This document shows, in pieces, positions 41,921-48,609 of a stretch of DNA of 64,000 bases (its first letter is position 1; each line of letters begins with the position of its first letter). The notes below the pieces were generated by a model. It worked only from the letters and a program-made list of their open reading frames with translations, made no database searches and had not been told where the DNA came from. The stretch comes from Escherichia phage AV111. The stretch is from the sequence record OR352941.1. One strand, 5' to 3'. The translations under genes and the position numbers were made by a program.

Positions 41921-42430
41921 TTAGAAATATTTTTTGTATGAATTGATTACATTTTGGTCTACATCATTATCAATTTGTGCGACAAGATAAGAACTGATTT
42001 CAACTTCTTGTGGGGCTGCTTGAACCAAATCAGAGTTCAAATACTCACGAATCCATGGAATAGGATGACGAGTTGATACGTCTTTAAGAGGACATGGCAG
42101 ACCACAACTACGCATACGAGACACGGTAAGATAATCCACAAATTCACTTAGGATTTTAACATTTAGACCTGGAAGAGCACCATCTTTAAACAAGTGTTCA
42201 GCCCATTCTTTTTCTTGAGCGTTAACTTCCATGAAAATATCAACTGCTTCTTGTTCACACTCTTGAGCAATTTTGACCCATTCATCACCGTCTTCGCCAT
42301 CTTGTAAAGCACGAATAATATATTGAGTGCCCTTGAGGTGAAGCTGTTCATCACGAGCAATGAACTTCATAATCTTGGCATTACCTTCCATGATTTCCAT
42401 GTTCTTATGGAAGTTAAAGGTACCGTTATG
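41921..42430 (-). CDS. nrdB: Ribonucleotide reductase small subunit NrdB, 3' exon (approximate 5' boundary)
   Basis: Translation ...MEIMEGNAKI..FIARDE.LHL.GTQ...VSSYLVAQIDN corresponds to the C-terminal half of class Ia NrdB; upstream boundary estimated by alignment to E. coli NrdB. Confidence 0.8.
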   Translation of the reverse strand, partial: HNGTFNFHKNMEIMEGNAKIMKFIARDEQLHLKGTQYIIRALQDGEDGDEWVKIAQECEQEAVDIFMEVNAQEKEWAEHLFKDGALPGLNVKILSEFVDYLTVSRMRSCGLPCPLKDVSTRHPIPWIREYLNSDLVQAAPQEVEISSYLVAQIDNDVDQNVINSYKKYF

Positions 42431-43512
42431 TTCGATTGAGCTCGCTAATTCTCAACCCGTTCTCTTATGAACTGCTACATATTACTATGCAGACCAGACT
42501 ATATCACAATCCCGGAGGGATTCTCCCCATTTCGAGTCGCTTGACCCTACGTCCGAAGACTAGTCGTTGAACCTTGCTTTGCAATTGTCGCCGTGCCATC
42601 GTTTATATGTTGATGGTGATAAATCTTTCTTATCACAATATGGACAATTCAATTGAATTCTATTTGGATTTAATTTACATCTGTCATTATGTTTTAGATA
42701 AAATCCAGGACCTTTACCAATGTGACCACAGAAATCACATGTGATTTCTTTTTGTGCAGGATGGGTCCCGTTCTTAACCATTTCTAATGTTTTTGCTGAT
42801 GTTCTTTTCTTATGGTCTTCTGATAAGAAATGATGTGAACCGTCATTTACCCGTTTTGATTGAGTTTCTGACTGCATTTTACCACCGCAAAATACATGAG
42901 TACCTTCTTTTATAGCTGCAATATTACGTTCTTTGACTTTTGCAACATGCTCAGCTTGTTGAAAATTATGTATACCTAATGCAACTCTATTTAAATTAGA
43001 TTTACGTTGTATTTCACCACCTAAAAGATGAAATGTACCATTTTCTATCTTAGATTTAATAGAGGCAATATTTTTAGCTCGTACTTCAGGGATATTAAAA
43101 ATCTGGATTTCTCTAGATTTTGCGGCTTTAGAAGCTAATTCAGAAATTTCTTCAGGAGAATATTTCATTCTAAGCTTTATAGCATGACAAGCCTGGTAAT
43201 CTTTTTGAGCTAAATGTATATCATAATGTTCCTGTATAGAAAGGCACATCAAATTATCTAAATCATTATTTTCACGGTTACCGTCTTTATGATGGATTTC
43301 GTATGTTCTTCCATCAGAATCTTTAGGTATAGGTCCGTTAGCATCTATCCAAATTTTTCTATAGTTCAATTGTGCATCCTCTTAAAAGTATAATCATATT
43401 TATATTATACTAATTAAAGGTGCAAGCAAAACCTTGGCTGCTAGTTTTCCTATAAAGGACTTTCCAGCAATTAAAGGAGTTTTCGATAAACGTTACCGTT
43501 TAAAGGCGCATT
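42431..43512 (-). mobile_element. Probable group I intron in nrdB carrying an HNH homing endonuclease gene (boundaries approximate)
   Basis: About 1.1 kb separates two halves of a conserved NrdB at the FYVSFA / ELMEGN junction; ~145 and ~160 nt of noncoding sequence flank the endonuclease ORF, as in the T-even nrdB intron. Confidence 0.7.
42560..43369 (-). CDS. HNH homing endonuclease, I-TevIII-like (intron-encoded)
   Basis: 269 aa; HNH motif EIHHKDGNRENNDLDNLMCLSIQEHYDIH; C-terminal Cys-rich zinc-finger-like segments (CDFCGH...C, CPYCDKK...C); same length as I-TevIII. Confidence 0.8.
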   Translation of the reverse strand: MNYRKIWIDANGPIPKDSDGRTYEIHHKDGNRENNDLDNLMCLSIQEHYDIHLAQKDYQACHAIKLRMKYSPEEISELASKAAKSREIQIFNIPEVRAKNIASIKSKIENGTFHLLGGEIQRKSNLNRVALGIHNFQQAEHVAKVKERNIAAIKEGTHVFCGGKMQSETQSKRVNDGSHHFLSEDHKKRTSAKTLEMVKNGTHPAQKEITCDFCGHIGKGPGFYLKHNDRCKLNPNRIQLNCPYCDKKDLSPSTYKRWHGDNCKARFND

Positions 43513-44190
43513 TTACGCAAAAGATACATAAAAACGAATTGCTTCTAAGGCATTAATAACGTGCAAACAGAGGTAAAGAGATTTCATTAGCTCACGCTTC
43601 CAATATGTCTCATGCTCAATAGCATCTTCAATAACGTCTTCGTCTGCATTAATTTCTTTTTGGTATTCGATATCAGCTTTAGCGTTTTCCCAATAACGAG
43701 CTTTAACCAGAACATCATCATAATATCGTCCGATAGATTCGGCACGCTTCATAATAGCTTCATCTAATACAATCTCATCAAACACCTTCGATGGATCTGT
43801 ATAAAGATTTCGCATAATATGAGTATATGAACGAGAGTGAATAGTTTCACTGAAAGTCCATGTAGCAACCCATGTATCTAATGAAGGGTCTGAAAGCAAT
43901 GACATAAGTACCGCAGATGGTGCTCTACCTTGGATAGAATCTAATAATGATTGATACTTAAGGTTGTTGGTAAAGATGTCCTGTTGGAACTGTGGAAGCT
44001 TATTAAACTGGGCCGAATCCAACATCAAGTTTACTTCCTCGGGACGCCAAAAGAACGAGAGCTGCTTTTCGATAAGCTCTTCAAAAACTTTATGACGCTG
44101 AATATCATACCGTGCGAGGCCAAGACCAGAACCAAAGAACATCGGTTCATTCAAAACATCGACTTGTTGTGTGTTAAAAACTGTACTCAT
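43513..44190 (-). CDS. nrdB: Ribonucleotide reductase small subunit NrdB, 5' exon
   Basis: 225 aa ending ...LCLHVINALEAIRFYVSFA then stop (stop lies in the insert). Confidence 0.85.
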   Translation of the reverse strand: MSTVFNTQQVDVLNEPMFFGSGLGLARYDIQRHKVFEELIEKQLSFFWRPEEVNLMLDSAQFNKLPQFQQDIFTNNLKYQSLLDSIQGRAPSAVLMSLLSDPSLDTWVATWTFSETIHSRSYTHIMRNLYTDPSKVFDEIVLDEAIMKRAESIGRYYDDVLVKARYWENAKADIEYQKEINADEDVIEDAIEHETYWKRELMKSLYLCLHVINALEAIRFYVSFA

Positions 44191-44245
44191 TATATTTTCT
44201 CACCTAGTTATTAACTCATCCATGAGTAAATTATAATAAAAAGTC

Positions 44246-45235
44246 TTAAAGCTTACAAGCAGAACAATCTTCTGCTTTAGGTGTTTCTAATTCATAGTCG
44301 TCTGTACCAGACCCATCACGAGTGTTATGATAGTAGAGGTTTTTTCCGCCAAAGTACCAGAAGTAAAGCAGATCGTCAAGCATTACTGACATTGGCACTT
44401 TACCTTTCTCAAATACTGCAGGGTCATAGTAAGTATTAGCAGAAGCAGATTGGCACACCCATTTCAACATGATAGCAACTTGGGTCAAATAAGGTTTATT
44501 ACCTTTCTTAGCAAGTTTCCACGCGTAGTCGTAAAGACTCATGTTATGTTCTATATTAGGAACAACCTGACGGAAGTTGCCTTCTTTAGATTCTTTAATA
44601 CTTACTGGACCACGTGGTGGCTCAATCCCGTTTGTAGAGTTTGATACTTGACTGCTTGACTCACAAGGCATGAGTGCAGACAACGTTGAGTTACGAATTC
44701 CATGTTCTTTGAGTTCAGCTCGAAGTTCTTCCCAGTCACAGACGTAGTTCGGGGCTGCGATTTGGTCAATCTTTTTATTGTACCAGTCGATAGGTAATTC
44801 GCCTCTAGACCATTTAGTGTCTGAATAATACTCGCAACATCCTTTTTCTTTGGCGAGTTTGATTGATGCTTTGATAAGGCCATATTGCAATCTCTCAAAC
44901 AATTCATGAGTCAAATCGTTAGCGTCTTCATATGAAGCAAAGTTAGAAGCTAACCATGCGGCATAGTTCGTCACACCAACACCGAGGTTTCGACGCTTTT
45001 TAGCTTTTAAAGCTTCTGGAACCGGATAATCTTGATAGTCTAACAGGTTATCAAGTGCACGTACTTGTACTTCAGCAAGTTCATTAATTTTATCTTGGTC
45101 TTGCCAATCAAATTTATCTAATACAAAAGCAGATAATGTGCAAAGGCCCACTTCACCTTTGTTTTCAATAACTTGTATTGTTGTATACTCATCATCTTCG
45201 TAAAATTCATCTACAAATTCATAATCAATATTCAT
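44246..45235 (-). CDS. nrdA: Ribonucleotide reductase large subunit NrdA, C-terminal piece (NrdA-b-like)
   Basis: 329 aa; GEVGLCTLSAF...ALDNLLDYQDYPV...NSTLSALMP.ESSSQ.SN.TNGIEPPRG...C-terminal CxxC tail, collinear with E. coli NrdA residues ~455-761; own ATG overlaps the stop of the upstream HNH gene. Confidence 0.88.
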   Translation of the reverse strand: MNIDYEFVDEFYEDDEYTTIQVIENKGEVGLCTLSAFVLDKFDWQDQDKINELAEVQVRALDNLLDYQDYPVPEALKAKKRRNLGVGVTNYAAWLASNFASYEDANDLTHELFERLQYGLIKASIKLAKEKGCCEYYSDTKWSRGELPIDWYNKKIDQIAAPNYVCDWEELRAELKEHGIRNSTLSALMPCESSSQVSNSTNGIEPPRGPVSIKESKEGNFRQVVPNIEHNMSLYDYAWKLAKKGNKPYLTQVAIMLKWVCQSASANTYYDPAVFEKGKVPMSVMLDDLLYFWYFGGKNLYYHNTRDGSGTDDYELETPKAEDCSACKL

Positions 45236-45935
45236 TTAATTCTTCTACCTTTTTTCGAGATATTCCTAGAGCTTTAGATGCTCGATGTATTGATTGATAT
45301 TCTATACCGTTTATTTTTACAGCAATTAAGTTATGGGGTTTTAATCCCTTTGGATGAGGTTTACTGACGTATTCTTGATTATCGTTTTCAGAGATATTAT
45401 CAAGCTTTCGACACTTAAAGCCTTTATGTTGAGACCTTTTGCCTTTGCATACGGCCGACATTGCCGAAGCATTGAGTGAATGTAGTTCGCAAAATTCTCT
45501 TAGGCCTTTATGGATTTCTTCATGACCGTCCGGGAAAGTAAATACCCAAGTTGTTTGAAGTTTTTCTCTATGCTCGTCAGTTACCGGAATACCTTTGTTC
45601 CAAGCTGGTTTGCCTTTATTATTTTCAGATACAGAAATAGCCAATTTTCTTCTAAGCCACCCATGGCGTTTATTGGTGTTCTTTCGTTCAATATTATCTT
45701 CAGAATAAACACACATCATATTAGCGGCAAATACCAATTTATGATTATCTGGATATATCTTTACTAATAATTGATGAGCTATGTAATGCTCTTCGGGTGT
45801 CAAATCTACCAGGTTTTCCTTTGTATCAGAACCACCAATACACAGAGGTATAATATGGTGTGATTCGGTATAGCAATCTAATTTTCTGTTCTTAGCTTTA
45901 GAAATAAGGTTATTGTAAATTTTAGAATAATCCAT
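45225..45935 (-). CDS. HNH homing endonuclease (MobE-like) inserted within nrdA
   Basis: 236 aa; HNH motif ESHHIIPLCIGGSDTKENLVDLTPEEHYIAH; C-terminal basic DNA-binding-like region; lies between the two nrdA pieces. Confidence 0.85.
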   Translation of the reverse strand: MDYSKIYNNLISKAKNRKLDCYTESHHIIPLCIGGSDTKENLVDLTPEEHYIAHQLLVKIYPDNHKLVFAANMMCVYSEDNIERKNTNKRHGWLRRKLAISVSENNKGKPAWNKGIPVTDEHREKLQTTWVFTFPDGHEEIHKGLREFCELHSLNASAMSAVCKGKRSQHKGFKCRKLDNISENDNQEYVSKPHPKGLKPHNLIAVKINGIEYQSIHRASKALGISRKKVEELNEY

Positions 45936-45980
45936 AACTTTTCCTCTTGTTATGGATTATTTATTAACGGCCTGTGTACT
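45225..45980 (-). mobile_element. Homing-endonuclease insertion splitting nrdA (free-standing HEG or ORF-containing intron)
   Basis: NrdA homology stops after the SNLCCEIAIPTNDVN active-site segment and resumes at GEVGLCTLSAF in a separate ORF; the intervening 0.75 kb is almost entirely the HNH ORF. Confidence 0.75.
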
Positions 45981-47405
45981 TTATTTGCTTTGAATTATAC
46001 CGCCAGGATTAGCTTCATAAAACTTAGCTACATCCGACTTCTTAATTTTGATTAAACGGGTTTGTTGGCTATTCACATCATTAGTTGGAATAGCGATTTC
46101 ACAACATAAGTTACTTTGACGAATTGGAGCTTTTTCACGAATAAATGGAGTGTAGTTATTCGTGTTATCAACAAACTGCGGATAAATTCGAGCAGTGCCA
46201 GAACGTTCAGTCATGAACAATTCAAAGAGTTCTAGTGCTTTGATTCTTTTCTTTCTGATTGTTGGGTCTTTTTCAGCTTTCTCATAAAGCTCATGGAATT
46301 TATCTTGATCTTCAAAGAACGAGTAGTATAGTTCGCCTGACATTTCGTGAGGGCTAAATAAAGTAATATAATCATTTTTACCAAGGCGTTCCATCATAAG
46401 GTCATTAATCTGAATTCCGTAGTCCATATGTCGAATACGGTTTTCATCTACGCCTTTGTTATTTTTCAGAACTAATAGGTTCTCTACTTCTAAGTGCCAC
46501 ATTGGATAATACGCTGTAGCAGCACCACCACGAATACCACCTTGAGAACAAGATTTTACTGCAGTTTGGAAATGTTTCCAGAATGGAATAACACCCGTAT
46601 GTCGAACTTCACCCATACCGATCTTAGAACCTTCTGCACGAAGCATACCAACGTTGATACCGATACCAGCTCGTTTAGAAATATATTCAATAATTGATGC
46701 TGAAGTTTTGTTAATAGATTTTAACGAATCACCGGCTTCAATAACTACACAACTAGAGAACTGGCGAGTCGGAGTACGAGCACCTGCCATAATTGGAGTA
46801 GGCAATGAAACTTGATGAGTAGAAACGGCATCATAAAAACGAATAATATGTTTCAAACGGTTATGAGTTTCGTCTTGGTGTAAGGCCATACCAATAGCCA
46901 TGATAGCAAACTGGGGAGTTTCATAAATCTTCCCAGTTGTTTTATCTTTAACTAGATATTTTTCTTTAAGCTGCATAGCACCAGCATAAGTCAGGTCAAA
47001 GTCTCGGTCATGTTTAATCTGTGAATCGAGATAAATGATTTCTTCTGCTGAATATTGAGACAACAGCTCAGGGTCATATTTGCCTTCATTAACACAGTAA
47101 GAAATATGGTCGATAAAAGCAGGCGGTTCAAACTGCCCGTATACATCTTTACGAAGTGCAAACATTAGCCCTTTGGCGGCGACATACTGATAATCAGGTT
47201 CTTCGACAGAAATCAAGTTAGCTGCAACTTTAATACAAATCTTCTGAATATCTTTGGTGCTCATCCCATCGACAAGATGGGTCTTAATTTCTTCGTACAA
47301 TTCATATGGGTCAATTTGTGTTCCTTCACATTGCCAAGTTAAGACTTTAATAATTTTCTGTGCATCAAAATTTTGGGATACACCACTGCTCTTATTTACT
47401 TGCAT
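45981..47405 (-). CDS. nrdA: Ribonucleotide reductase large subunit NrdA, N-terminal piece (NrdA-a-like)
   Basis: 474 aa; ATP-cone N-terminus, catalytic SNLCCEI motif near the C-terminus, then 29 non-homologous residues and stop. Confidence 0.88.
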   Translation of the reverse strand: MQVNKSSGVSQNFDAQKIIKVLTWQCEGTQIDPYELYEEIKTHLVDGMSTKDIQKICIKVAANLISVEEPDYQYVAAKGLMFALRKDVYGQFEPPAFIDHISYCVNEGKYDPELLSQYSAEEIIYLDSQIKHDRDFDLTYAGAMQLKEKYLVKDKTTGKIYETPQFAIMAIGMALHQDETHNRLKHIIRFYDAVSTHQVSLPTPIMAGARTPTRQFSSCVVIEAGDSLKSINKTSASIIEYISKRAGIGINVGMLRAEGSKIGMGEVRHTGVIPFWKHFQTAVKSCSQGGIRGGAATAYYPMWHLEVENLLVLKNNKGVDENRIRHMDYGIQINDLMMERLGKNDYITLFSPHEMSGELYYSFFEDQDKFHELYEKAEKDPTIRKKRIKALELFELFMTERSGTARIYPQFVDNTNNYTPFIREKAPIRQSNLCCEIAIPTNDVNSQQTRLIKIKKSDVAKFYEANPGGIIQSK

Positions 47406-47492
47406 ATATTCCTCAGTATAGGTTGATAGACATTACTCCAAACGGGATAGTATTTATCCCGTTAATTTATTATACACTTTTAAACTGAAGCG

Positions 47493-47747
47493 TTAATTAT
47501 CCTCAGCAATAATTTCTTCGTATTCTTTAGGTGTCAAGACTGTGATATCGAAATAAACCAACGGTTCTTTTTCCATACCGTAACCACCACAGAATTCACG
47601 ATATTCATAAATTCGTTCATGTGAATAACAAATGAATCGTTCACCTTTAACTGTGATTTCACTATTCGGTGAAGGGATATCCAGTTCGGTAGGATTTTTC
47701 ATTTCAAAAATTGTGGTGCCATATGAATTAATAAAACGTAAAATCAT
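47493..47747 (-). CDS. Hypothetical protein
   Basis: 84-aa ORF between nrdA and td. Confidence 0.5.
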   Translation of the reverse strand: MILRFINSYGTTIFEMKNPTELDIPSPNSEITVKGERFICYSHERIYEYREFCGGYGMEKEPLVYFDITVLTPKEYEEIIAEDN

Positions 47748-47748
47748 T

Positions 47749-48609
47749 TTATACCGCCATTTTAGCTTTGATAGCTGGATGAGATTCGTAATTTTTAAGA
47801 ACGAAATCAGAATGTGTCATCGTTCCAGTAACCCAGTCCATTTGGATTTTTGTAGGCCAATTCTCAAAATTACTAGGCCAATTAATTTCAAGAGAACATA
47901 ACTCTTTAGGTTCACGACGAAGAACTTCTTTGCATTGTTCTACATGATTGCTGTAGATATGCGTGTTGCCGCCTGAGAACACTAAATCACCTGGAATAAG
48001 GTTACACATCTTCGCTACAATATGCGTTAAGGCAGCGTACGAGGCGATGTTGAACGGCAGGCCCAAGAAAACATCTACACTGCGTTGATACCATTGTAAA
48101 TCAAGATGTCCATTACGCACATTAAATTGATAGAACATATGACAAGGAGGAAGAGCCATTTGGTCAATTTCGGCTGGGTTCCATGCAGAAACTATTTGAC
48201 GACGATCATTAGGAAGAGCTTTAATACGGTCGATAGTTTTGACCAATTGGTCTACACCACCAAAATCACGCCATTGCTTACCATAAATAGGACCAAGTTC
48301 GCCGCTATGATATCCAAGGTCTTTTGCCTGATTTTCATAGTTGTCGTCCCAAATAGTTTTACCTTCAATTAGACTGCCATGAGTACGAATACGCAAATCA
48401 TTAACATTGGTAGAACCAGACATGAACCACAGTAACTCGGCAATACAAGCTTTCCATGCTAATTTCTTAGTTGTTACTGCAGGGAATCCTTTAGTCAGAT
48501 CCCATCGTAATTTAGTTCCGAACAGAGCAATAGTGCCGGTACCTGTACGGTCGTCTGTTTCGTAGCCATTTTCTAAGATATCTTTAATCAGGTATTGGTA
48601 TTGTTTCAT
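47749..48609 (-). CDS. td: Thymidylate synthase (intronless)
   Basis: 286 aa uninterrupted; TS motifs (LPPCH.F.QF, DLGPIYG); same length as spliced T4 TS. Confidence 0.93.
   Translation of the reverse strand: MKQYQYLIKDILENGYETDDRTGTGTIALFGTKLRWDLTKGFPAVTTKKLAWKACIAELLWFMSGSTNVNDLRIRTHGSLIEGKTIWDDNYENQAKDLGYHSGELGPIYGKQWRDFGGVDQLVKTIDRIKALPNDRRQIVSAWNPAEIDQMALPPCHMFYQFNVRNGHLDLQWYQRSVDVFLGLPFNIASYAALTHIVAKMCNLIPGDLVFSGGNTHIYSNHVEQCKEVLRREPKELCSLEINWPSNFENWPTKIQMDWVTGTMTHSDFVLKNYESHPAIKAKMAV

Follow-up and report, generated by a model that had tools for sequence, protein, structure and literature searches.

The nrdB gene of Escherichia phage AV111 (sequence record OR352941.1) is represented by three open reading frames on the minus strand (43513..44190, 42560..43369 and 41921..42400), which raises the question of whether the gene is interrupted by an intron and, if so, whether that element is able to move. 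The window analysed here is the whole 64,000-nucleotide stretch of this phage DNA. The insert in nrdB is almost certainly the RB3-type, full-length form of the T-even nrdB group I intron, residing in a Mosigvirus-type T4-like coliphage. The gene is organised as follows.

43515..44190, minus strand: nrdB exon 1, 676 nt, with its junction placed from T4 and RB3
42424..43514, minus strand: group I intron of the RB3 type, 1091 nt, ending in G 42424; assigned from RB3 and T4 identity and Rfam RF00028 matches to its halves
41921..42423, minus strand: nrdB exon 2, 503 nt with the stop codon counted

The exon borders differ slightly from those of the reading frames. Exon 1 ends at T 43515, after ...FYVSFA and the first base of the Cys codon, and the first base of exon 2 is G 42423 (...C TFNFHKNMEIMEGN), giving FYVSFAC|TFNF across the junction. 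An earlier, sequence-only reading of this DNA had placed an insert of about 1.1 kb at the T-even intron site, directly before a motif given as ELMEGN. The size is confirmed (43514..42424) and so is the site, the insertion nucleotide being that of the T4 and RB3 nrdB introns, but the motif reads EIMEGN and is found 11 codons downstream of the junction. When the insert is removed in silico, the spliced CDS encodes a NrdB of 392 amino acids with no internal stop, and its full 1179 nt can be aligned, with no gaps, to the uninterrupted nrdB of the sister Mosigvirus phages JK42, APCEc01, p000y, JK36, moha and F31 (99.3-99.4% identity). As these are natural intronless genes, the match establishes the junction without recourse to a model. 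The splice-site sequences, ...TTTGCGT|AAAATGCG ... CATAACG|GTACC, are identical in T4 and RB3. Within the insert the central reading frame is bordered by 145 nt (5') and 136 nt (3') of non-coding sequence, in keeping with the flanks of some 150 nt noted previously.

These flanks, together with the end of the reading frame, contain the predicted elements of a group I ribozyme.

43422..43514, minus strand: 5' ribozyme segment, from the Rfam match to model positions 1-137 and the ViennaRNA fold
43509..43506, minus strand: IGS/P1 3' strand, GCGC
43501..43488, minus strand: P2, AAACG-GUAA-CGUUU
from 43479, minus strand: P3 5' strand, CUCCUU
43470..43464 pairing with 43444..43438, minus strand: P4
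43459..43448, minus strand: P5 hairpin
within 43440..43432, minus strand: P6 5' strand
43429..43422, minus strand: P6a 5' strand
42424..42582, minus strand: 3' ribozyme core, from the Rfam match to model positions 112-253 and the MFE fold
42582..42574, minus strand: P6a 3' strand
42573..42560, minus strand: P6 3' strand, J6/7 and P7 5' strand, overlapping the last codons of the ORF and its TAG stop
42560..42551, minus strand: P7.1
42547..42534, minus strand: P7.2
42528..42523, minus strand: P3 3' strand
42521..42509, minus strand: P8
within 42504..42496, minus strand: P7 3' strand
42492..42475, minus strand: P9
42472..42459, minus strand: P9.1
42456..42435, minus strand: P9.2
42424, minus strand: terminal G of the intron

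In P1 the end of exon 1 (...GCGU) is matched by intron positions 6-9 (GCGC) in one U.G and three G-C pairs, with T 43515, the last base of the exon, providing the U that faces intron G6. The scan for a group I core that had been proposed as a check detects both halves of RF00028 (Intron_gpI) when these are searched separately. The 5' half matches model positions 1-137 with 25.8 bits (E = 4e-5) and the 3' half positions 112-253 with 29.3 bits (E = 4.4e-6), both significant but each below the family threshold of 50 bits, which is meant for an uninterrupted match. At the gathering score the whole window gives no Rfam match, as the alignment is broken up by the long loop that holds the ORF. This blank is uninformative, since control loci from T4 and RB3, where the td and nrdB introns are proven, are equally blank. 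A permissive run placed the whole model on the 3' region and spuriously aligned its 5' part to sequence within the ORF; it gave way to the half searches. The MFE fold of an ORF-deleted mini-intron (ViennaRNA) recovers P2, P4, P5, P6a, P7.1 and P7.2 as well as P8, P9, P9.1 and P9.2. The retrieved copies of the intron are all more than 99% identical, with at most 10 of the 1091 positions differing, nearly all of them within the ORF. The nrdB introns of T4 and RB3 have been described as self-splicing (PMC2988022), and from its 99% identity to them the AV111 intron is expected to self-splice too.

If the insert were to stay in the RNA, nrdB would be a gene in pieces, with two NrdB polypeptides assembling as those of the split NrdA probably do. 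The halves are indeed annotated as separate CDSs in many database records, and the adjacent nrdA is truly split by a free-standing HNH gene that leaves no room for an intron. However, exon 2 has neither a start codon nor a ribosome-binding site at its true beginning, and its first ATG lies 11 codons past the junction, so that the conserved CTFNFHKN would be lost without splicing. Moreover, the flanks that carry the recognisable group I core are essentially identical to those of introns shown to self-splice in T4 (PMC2988022). Such an arrangement is therefore extremely improbable, and both a pseudogene and a two-polypeptide NrdB were rejected on the missing start of exon 2 and the core in the flanks.

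For the self-splicing intron, the following sequence of events can be proposed. The intron would be transcribed within the nrdB pre-mRNA, where the two non-coding flanks and the final ~30 nt of the ORF would fold into the ribozyme core, with the ~840-nt ORF region looped out of P6a. Guanosine-initiated self-splicing would then join ...UUUGCGU to GUACCUUU... and restore the 392-aa NrdB; the predicted ligated-exon junction is ...TCTTTTGCGT joined to GTACCTTTAAC.... The looped-out ORF would give rise to I-TevIII, an HNH and double-zinc-finger endonuclease. In early transcripts a hairpin over the ribosome-binding site would hold back its translation, whereas transcripts from a late promoter would start inside the hairpin, without its 5' strand, and leave the ribosome-binding site free. 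Repair of a cut genome would finally give it a copy of the intron together with neighbouring exon bases, the process known as homing. The coding and regulatory features are given below.

42560..43369, minus strand: I-TevIII homing endonuclease ORF, 269 aa with a TTG start, from Pfam HNH_3 and RB3 identity
43373..43424, minus strand: hairpin over the I-TevIII ribosome-binding site, dG -14.9 kcal/mol

The full-length HNH/zinc-finger endonuclease that had been recognised from the letters is I-TevIII, with its catalytic and zinc-binding residues intact. The protein has an N-terminal HNH domain (residues 4-48 match Pfam HNH_3, E = 6e-13). Towards the C-terminus are two zinc fingers of the pattern CX2CX12-13HX3C, at residues 211-231 and 242-263, a motif described previously for I-TevIII (PMC1865063). 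H26, H27, N39 and H48, the roles of which were defined by alanine mutants of I-TevIII, are all kept, as are C211/C214 and C242/C245, and mutation of these residues abolishes cleavage or binding (PMC1865063). A Pfam FlgM match to residues 74-117, scoring 26.5 bits where the cut-off is 25, was judged to be due to chance in a helical, charged linker. The AV111 and RB3 proteins share the same TTG start and the same stop and are identical at 266 of 269 residues, the substitutions being D23Y, D117G and I142V, and the ORFs differ at nine nucleotides, five of them synonymous. D23Y, which lies beside the catalytic histidines, was considered as an inactivating change and rejected, since Y23 is present in 7/7 other full-length copies examined and D23 only in RB3. 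D117G and I142V are common to only one other copy examined, that of 348Ecol098PP.

The hairpin upstream of the ORF sequesters its Shine-Dalgarno sequence AAGAGGA (43383..43377) by pairing, and the loop carries the T4 late-promoter consensus TATAAATA (43404..43397). None of 200 shuffled sequences was as stable (z = -4.39). A hairpin over the ribosome-binding site with a late promoter in its loop has been described for I-TevIII (PMC2988022), and late-promoter regulation of this kind would be anticipated in AV111 from the RB3 and T4 literature.

RB3 I-TevIII is active and the RB3 nrdB intron mobile (Robbins et al. 2007, PMC1865063), and the RB3 and T4 literature likewise leads us to infer cleavage by the AV111 enzyme, and the geometry of the cut. 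It is unlikely, although not negligibly so, that the intron splices whilst its endonuclease is inactive, a vertically inherited passenger like that of T4 but without an obvious deletion. The three amino-acid changes relative to the characterised RB3 enzyme, two of which fall in the linker that joins the HNH domain to the DNA-binding domain and is poorly understood, would be compatible with such a passenger, as would the weakness of TTG as a start. The same TTG is, however, used by the active enzyme of RB3, every experimentally critical residue is kept and the ORF differences include the five synonymous ones mentioned above. Furthermore, the identical protein occurs in 348Ecol098PP, Y23 is the prevailing residue, and the co-conversion tracts of AV111 and vB_EcoM_G2469 differ although their exons are near-identical, suggesting recent or repeated mobility.

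The origin of the element becomes apparent from alignment with the RB3 and T4 nrdB introns, as had also been proposed. The RB3 intron has the same length and is identical at 1081/1091 positions (99.1%), the sole difference outside the ORF being at intron position 1001 in the P8 loop. In contrast, the exons are only ~80% identical (551/671 for exon 1 and 393/501 for exon 2), the AV111 host gene being from a different genus with Mosigvirus-type exons. Such a disparity between intron and exons is what characterises an element that has spread horizontally through homing. T4 has the same ribozyme sequence at the same site, with 593/598 positions identical over the retained part, but is without intron positions 210-700 (491 nt). 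The HNH domain is thereby gone and the frame shifted, and from the shared TTG start only 22 codons are read, which agrees with the earlier description of the T4 endonuclease as a truncated remnant. The T4 nrdB intron depends on MobE for trans-homing (PMC2790892). RB3 has mobE between nrdA and nrdB, whereas AV111 has none at that position, where the intergenic region is 55 nt.

Other carriers of the nrdB intron belong to Mosigvirus, Dhakavirus and Tequatrovirus isolates such as 348Ecol098PP, vB_EcoM_G2469, JK45, JM10 and Bp7. The 348Ecol098PP intron differs from that of AV111 at two positions and encodes an identical I-TevIII, whereas that of G2469 has nine differences within exons that differ at only four positions. 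The full-length form is present in 79 records of the phage collection, one of which has the identical endonuclease, and its occurrence in RB3 has been known since Eddy & Gold 1991, as cited in PMC2988022. The element is thus already known and is not unusual among phages. Its distribution among close relatives is patchy, as sister phages with 99.4%-identical exons carry no nrdB intron. The exon bases around the insertion point retain a further mark.

42341..43519, minus strand: co-conversion tract, with sites at 43519 and 43516 on one side of the intron and at 42422, 42407, 42401 and 42341 on the other

Counted from the insertion point these sites are -5, -2, +2, +17, +23 and +83, and all have the RB3-type base rather than that of intronless Mosigvirus; at -5, -2 and +2 a JK42-type site has C, A and C. 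Spliced AV111 nrdB differs from the intronless gene of JK42 at seven positions, all between -26 and +83, six of which have the RB3 base. Donor-type bases around the insertion site are as expected for co-conversion during homing. In G2469 the donor bases extend only from -5 to +2 and in AV111 out to +83; unequal tracts of this kind would mean separate homings, or one homing and subsequent recombination. The likeness of the intron to that of RB3 might instead be that of an intron inherited from ancient times and kept by strong purifying selection, as there is constraint on ribozyme cores and on endonuclease genes, and exon sequence near insertion sites is conserved anyway. This is very unlikely, given only five synonymous differences in an 810-nt ORF against ~20% exon divergence, the absence of the intron from the sisters with 99.4%-identical exons, and the exon differences from these sisters, which are of donor type and confined to -26 to +83.

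The other T-even intron sites differ in their state.

47749..48609, minus strand: td (thymidylate synthase), intronless, one 286-aa ORF matching Pfam Thymidylat_synt end to end

The td gene is collinear with the T4 td exons and the ~1017-nt T4 intron is absent, leaving an empty I-TevI intron site between 48062 and 48061, exactly the uninterrupted gene that had been reported. The accompanying statement, that mobile-intron content differs from T4 at two of three classical sites visible here, holds for nrdB and td, but these are the only two of the three sites that lie in the window; nrdD is outside it, and a search of all six frames gave no glycyl-radical motif. The nrdA gene beside nrdB is split at the same active-site position as that of Aeromonas phage Aeh1, a split that the earlier reading did not mention here. 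With its split nrdA and intronless td, AV111 is the opposite of 348Ecol098PP, G2469, JK45, JM10 and Bp7, in which nrdA is intact and td contains an intron. There is, in our view, an even chance that the intron is now spreading across T-even genera via its own endonuclease, without MobE, and that both RNR subunits are reassembled after HNH invasion. If so, splicing of the RNA would reassemble NrdB, and NrdA would form from two associating polypeptides, as it does in Aeh1.

Apart from getting the annotation right, the locus has little significance. One spliced CDS (44190..43515 joined to 42423..41921) should replace the two nrdB ORFs, and the TTG-initiated ORF of 269 aa should carry the name I-TevIII. 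In many relatives in the databases the nrdB halves are left separate, the endonuclease is labelled hypothetical, or its start is set at an internal ATG. As an example of intron homing between phage genera the locus is a clean textbook case, with the co-conversion tract visible. Since a 99% conserved intron lies within exons that are ~80% conserved, and its tract can be seen, the locus could serve as natural material for studies of I-TevIII target tolerance; at positions -5, -2 and +2 the alleles of intronless Mosigvirus phages depart from the homing site of T4 type.

The nrdB gene lies on the minus strand, preceded by nrdA, td and frd and followed by denA and rnlA in the same order as in T4, and the nearest database relative for this stretch is the Mosigvirus Escherichia phage vB_EcoM_G2469 (99.4%). 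The minus-strand ORF listing of the region returns three reading frames, of 225, 269 and 159 aa. The T4 annotation of nrdB joins two parts across an intron of 598 nt, and the splice sites, ...TCTTTTGCGT|AAAATGCG... and ...CATAACG|GTACCTTTAA..., are common to T4, the window, RB3 and seven other phages examined. The ORFs, and the borders drawn from the splice sites shared with T4 and RB3, are as follows.

44190..43513, minus strand, N-terminal NrdB piece, 225 aa (ORF listing)
43369..42560, minus strand, I-TevIII ORF, 269 aa, TTG start (ORF listing)
42400..41921, minus strand, C-terminal NrdB piece, 159 aa (ORF listing)
44190..43515, minus strand, nrdB exon 1 (shared splice sites)
43514..42424, minus strand, nrdB intron, 1091 nt (shared splice sites)
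42423..41921, minus strand, nrdB exon 2 (shared splice sites)

When spliced in silico, nrdB becomes a CDS of 1179 nt that encodes 392 aa of NrdB without a premature stop and reads ...FYVSFACTFNFHKNMEIMEGN... at the junction. It forms one ungapped 1179-nt alignment with the uninterrupted nrdB of JK42, APCEc01, p000y, JK36, moha and F31 (99.3–99.4%), and the predicted exon junction is borne out independently by these natural intronless alleles. The observation made in the sequence-only reading is confirmed and its interpretation supported, except in the detail of the insertion site: the two NrdB halves are indeed interrupted, but the junction falls 11 codons upstream of the second ORF's ATG and not directly before 'EIMEGN'.

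At its gathering threshold, Rfam gives no group I intron match anywhere in the window, and likewise none in the T4 and RB3 control loci, where td and nrdB introns have been demonstrated by experiment. The null result in the window arises because an ORF loop of ~840 nt interrupts the model. When the intron halves are searched separately against RF00028 (Rfam Intron_gpI, with a family threshold of 50 bits for an uninterrupted match), both give partial matches that are significant but fall short of that threshold.

43531..43395, minus strand, 5' flank, model positions 1-137, 25.8 bits, E = 4e-5
42590..42475, minus strand, 3' flank, model positions 112-253, 29.3 bits, E = 4.4e-6

The conserved P7 strands GUUCAACGACUA and GAUAUAGUCU lie within the 3' match. 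The P1 helix is GCGU/GCGC, with the terminal U of the 5' exon opposite intron G6, and the last intron base is G. With the ORF loop swapped for a tetraloop, the predicted MFE fold recovers P2 (GNRA loop), P4, P5, P6a, P7.1, P7.2 and P8, as well as P9 (GNRA loop), P9.1 and P9.2; P3 and P7, which form a pseudoknot, were located by visual inspection. P6a pairs 43429..43422 with 42582..42574 and so reaches the 3' end of the ORF, such that the last ~30 nt of the I-TevIII ORF, including its TAG, double as P6a, P6, J6/7 and the 5' strand of P7. All copies of the intron are nearly identical, leaving no base-pair covariation in these predicted helices. Some related GenBank records carry a spurious 96-nt ORF across the 3' ribozyme core.

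The ORF does encode the full-length 269-aa HNH/zinc-finger endonuclease originally described, with a Pfam HNH_3 match at residues 4–48 (E = 6e-13) and 266 of 269 residues identical to RB3 I-TevIII, with which it shares the TTG start and an upstream AAGAGGA. The RB3 enzyme confers mobility on its intron (Robbins et al., PMC1865063); its cleavage is abolished by H26A, H27A, N39A and H48A, and its binding requires C211, C214, C242 and C245, in two CX2CX12-13HX3C fingers (PMC1865063). The window protein retains H26, H27, N39, H48, the four cysteines and both zinc fingers, and differs from RB3 only by D23Y, D117G and I142V. The seven other full-length copies that were examined all have Y23, making RB3 the outlier, and the 348Ecol098PP protein is identical to that of the window over its whole length. 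Given these features, it is likely that the window I-TevIII is homing-competent.

For linker residues 74–117 (ORF 42560..43369), Pfam reports FlgM (anti-sigma-28) at 26.5 bits, where the cut-off is 25; this marginal match is probably due to chance, the segment being charged and helical. In related GenBank records (L002, L006–L010) the nrdB exons are mostly annotated as separate genes, and in most such records I-TevIII appears as a 'hypothetical protein' or with an internal-ATG start (229 aa in 348Ecol098PP), misannotation that apparently stems from the TTG start.

The I-TevIII ribosome-binding site sits inside a predicted hairpin (43424..43373, minus strand; dG -14.9 kcal/mol, z = -4.39, 0 of 200 shuffles equally stable), the loop of which holds TATAAATA (43404..43397), the T4 late-promoter consensus. 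The ORF may be kept silent in read-through early transcripts, whilst late transcripts would begin within the hairpin and free the ribosome-binding site.

Compared with the nrdB intron of RB3, the insert has 1081 of 1091 positions identical, the only non-ORF difference being at intron position 1001, in the P8 loop; compared with what T4 retains of the intron, it has 593 of 598. Window-intron positions 210–700 (491 nt) are missing in T4, where the shared TTG start leads into only 22 codons in frame; the T4 annotation also states a deletion derivative, and the T4 copy is the truncated remnant it was said to be. The exons are far less alike (exon 1, 551/671; exon 2, 393/501 identical to RB3). A 99% intron in a ~80% gene, with sister phages that lack the intron, is the pattern classically left when an element spreads horizontally by homing, and the nrdB intron appears to have spread in this way.

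Against intronless JK42, the spliced gene has 7 differences, all within -26..+83 of the insertion site. Position -26 (43540) is a synonymous change private to the window, and at the other six the window has the RB3-type base.

43519, 43516, 42422, 42407, 42401, 42341, minus strand, RB3-type exon positions -5, -2, +2, +17, +23 and +83 (against intronless Mosigvirus alleles)

Judged by sequence, these bases beside the intron are a co-conversion tract. Positions -5, -2 and +2 read T, G, T in every intron-bearing allele examined and C, A, C in the intronless Mosigvirus alleles; the P1 helix needs G at -2. In G2469, whose exons are otherwise near-identical to those of the window, donor bases are limited to -5..+2, and this shorter tract suggests that homing occurred separately in the two or that recombination followed. 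Neither mobE nor nrdB.1/nrdB.2 is present in the 55-nt gap (44191..44245) between nrdA-C, the second piece of a split nrdA, and nrdB, unlike in T4 and RB3, which carry these genes between nrdA and nrdB. MobE-driven trans-homing has been described in T4 (PMC2790892), but without mobE in this intergenic region it cannot originate from that position.

The nrdA gene (44246..47405, minus strand) is itself interrupted by an insert of ~904 nt, at approximately 46071..45158.

47405..45981, minus strand, nrdA-N, 474 aa (ORF)
45935..45225, minus strand, free-standing MobE-like HNH gene, 236 aa (ORF in the nrdA insert)
45235..44246, minus strand, nrdA-C, 329 aa (ORF)

The insert takes the place of 'GPDAEI' between NLCCEIAIPTNDVN and GLCTLSAF, a site flanked by the counterparts of E. 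coli Cys439/Glu441 and Cys462, and gives NrdA-N a basic tail and NrdA-C an acidic head; the HNH gene and the start of nrdA-C share 11 nt. In Aeromonas phage Aeh1, nrdA is split by mobE and activity depends on the tails (PMC3045599). As the site and charge pattern are the same and the endonuclease gene overlaps nrdA-b in a similar way, the window arrangement by analogy closely parallels this 'genes-in-pieces' RNR (PMC3045599). Over its first 99 residues the HNH protein shares 49% identity with RB3 MobE, and it is 100% identical to one in Tequatrovirus HY01, although the nrdA flanks there are only ~85% identical. The split arrangement is common to 32 phage records, whereas nrdA is intact in the closest relatives, G2469 and JK42.

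The td gene (48609..47749, minus strand) is a single 286-aa ORF that matches Pfam Thymidylat_synt across the whole profile. It is collinear with the T4 td exons and the ~1017-nt T4 intron is missing between 48062 and 48061, in agreement with its description as intronless. In contrast, the td intron with I-TevI is present in G2469 and 348Ecol098PP, and even very close relatives thus differ in intron content. No nrdD was found within the window. The full-length nrdB element occurs in 79 of 886 matching phage records, from Tequatrovirus, Mosigvirus and Dhakavirus, several of them with the names I-TevIII or 'intron-associated endonuclease 3' in their annotation; knowledge of the RB3 element goes back to 1991, and its biochemical characterisation followed in 2007 (PMC1865063). 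Its combination with a split nrdA and an intronless td is found in no record among the best matches, and is ordinary mosaicism of mobile elements. The td–nrdA interval (47406..47748) holds one small ORF only (47493..47747, 84 aa), whereas JK42 has an extra nrdA.1-like gene and both nrdA.1 and nrdA.2 occur there in T4 and RB3, a variation in small-gene content beside mobile elements.
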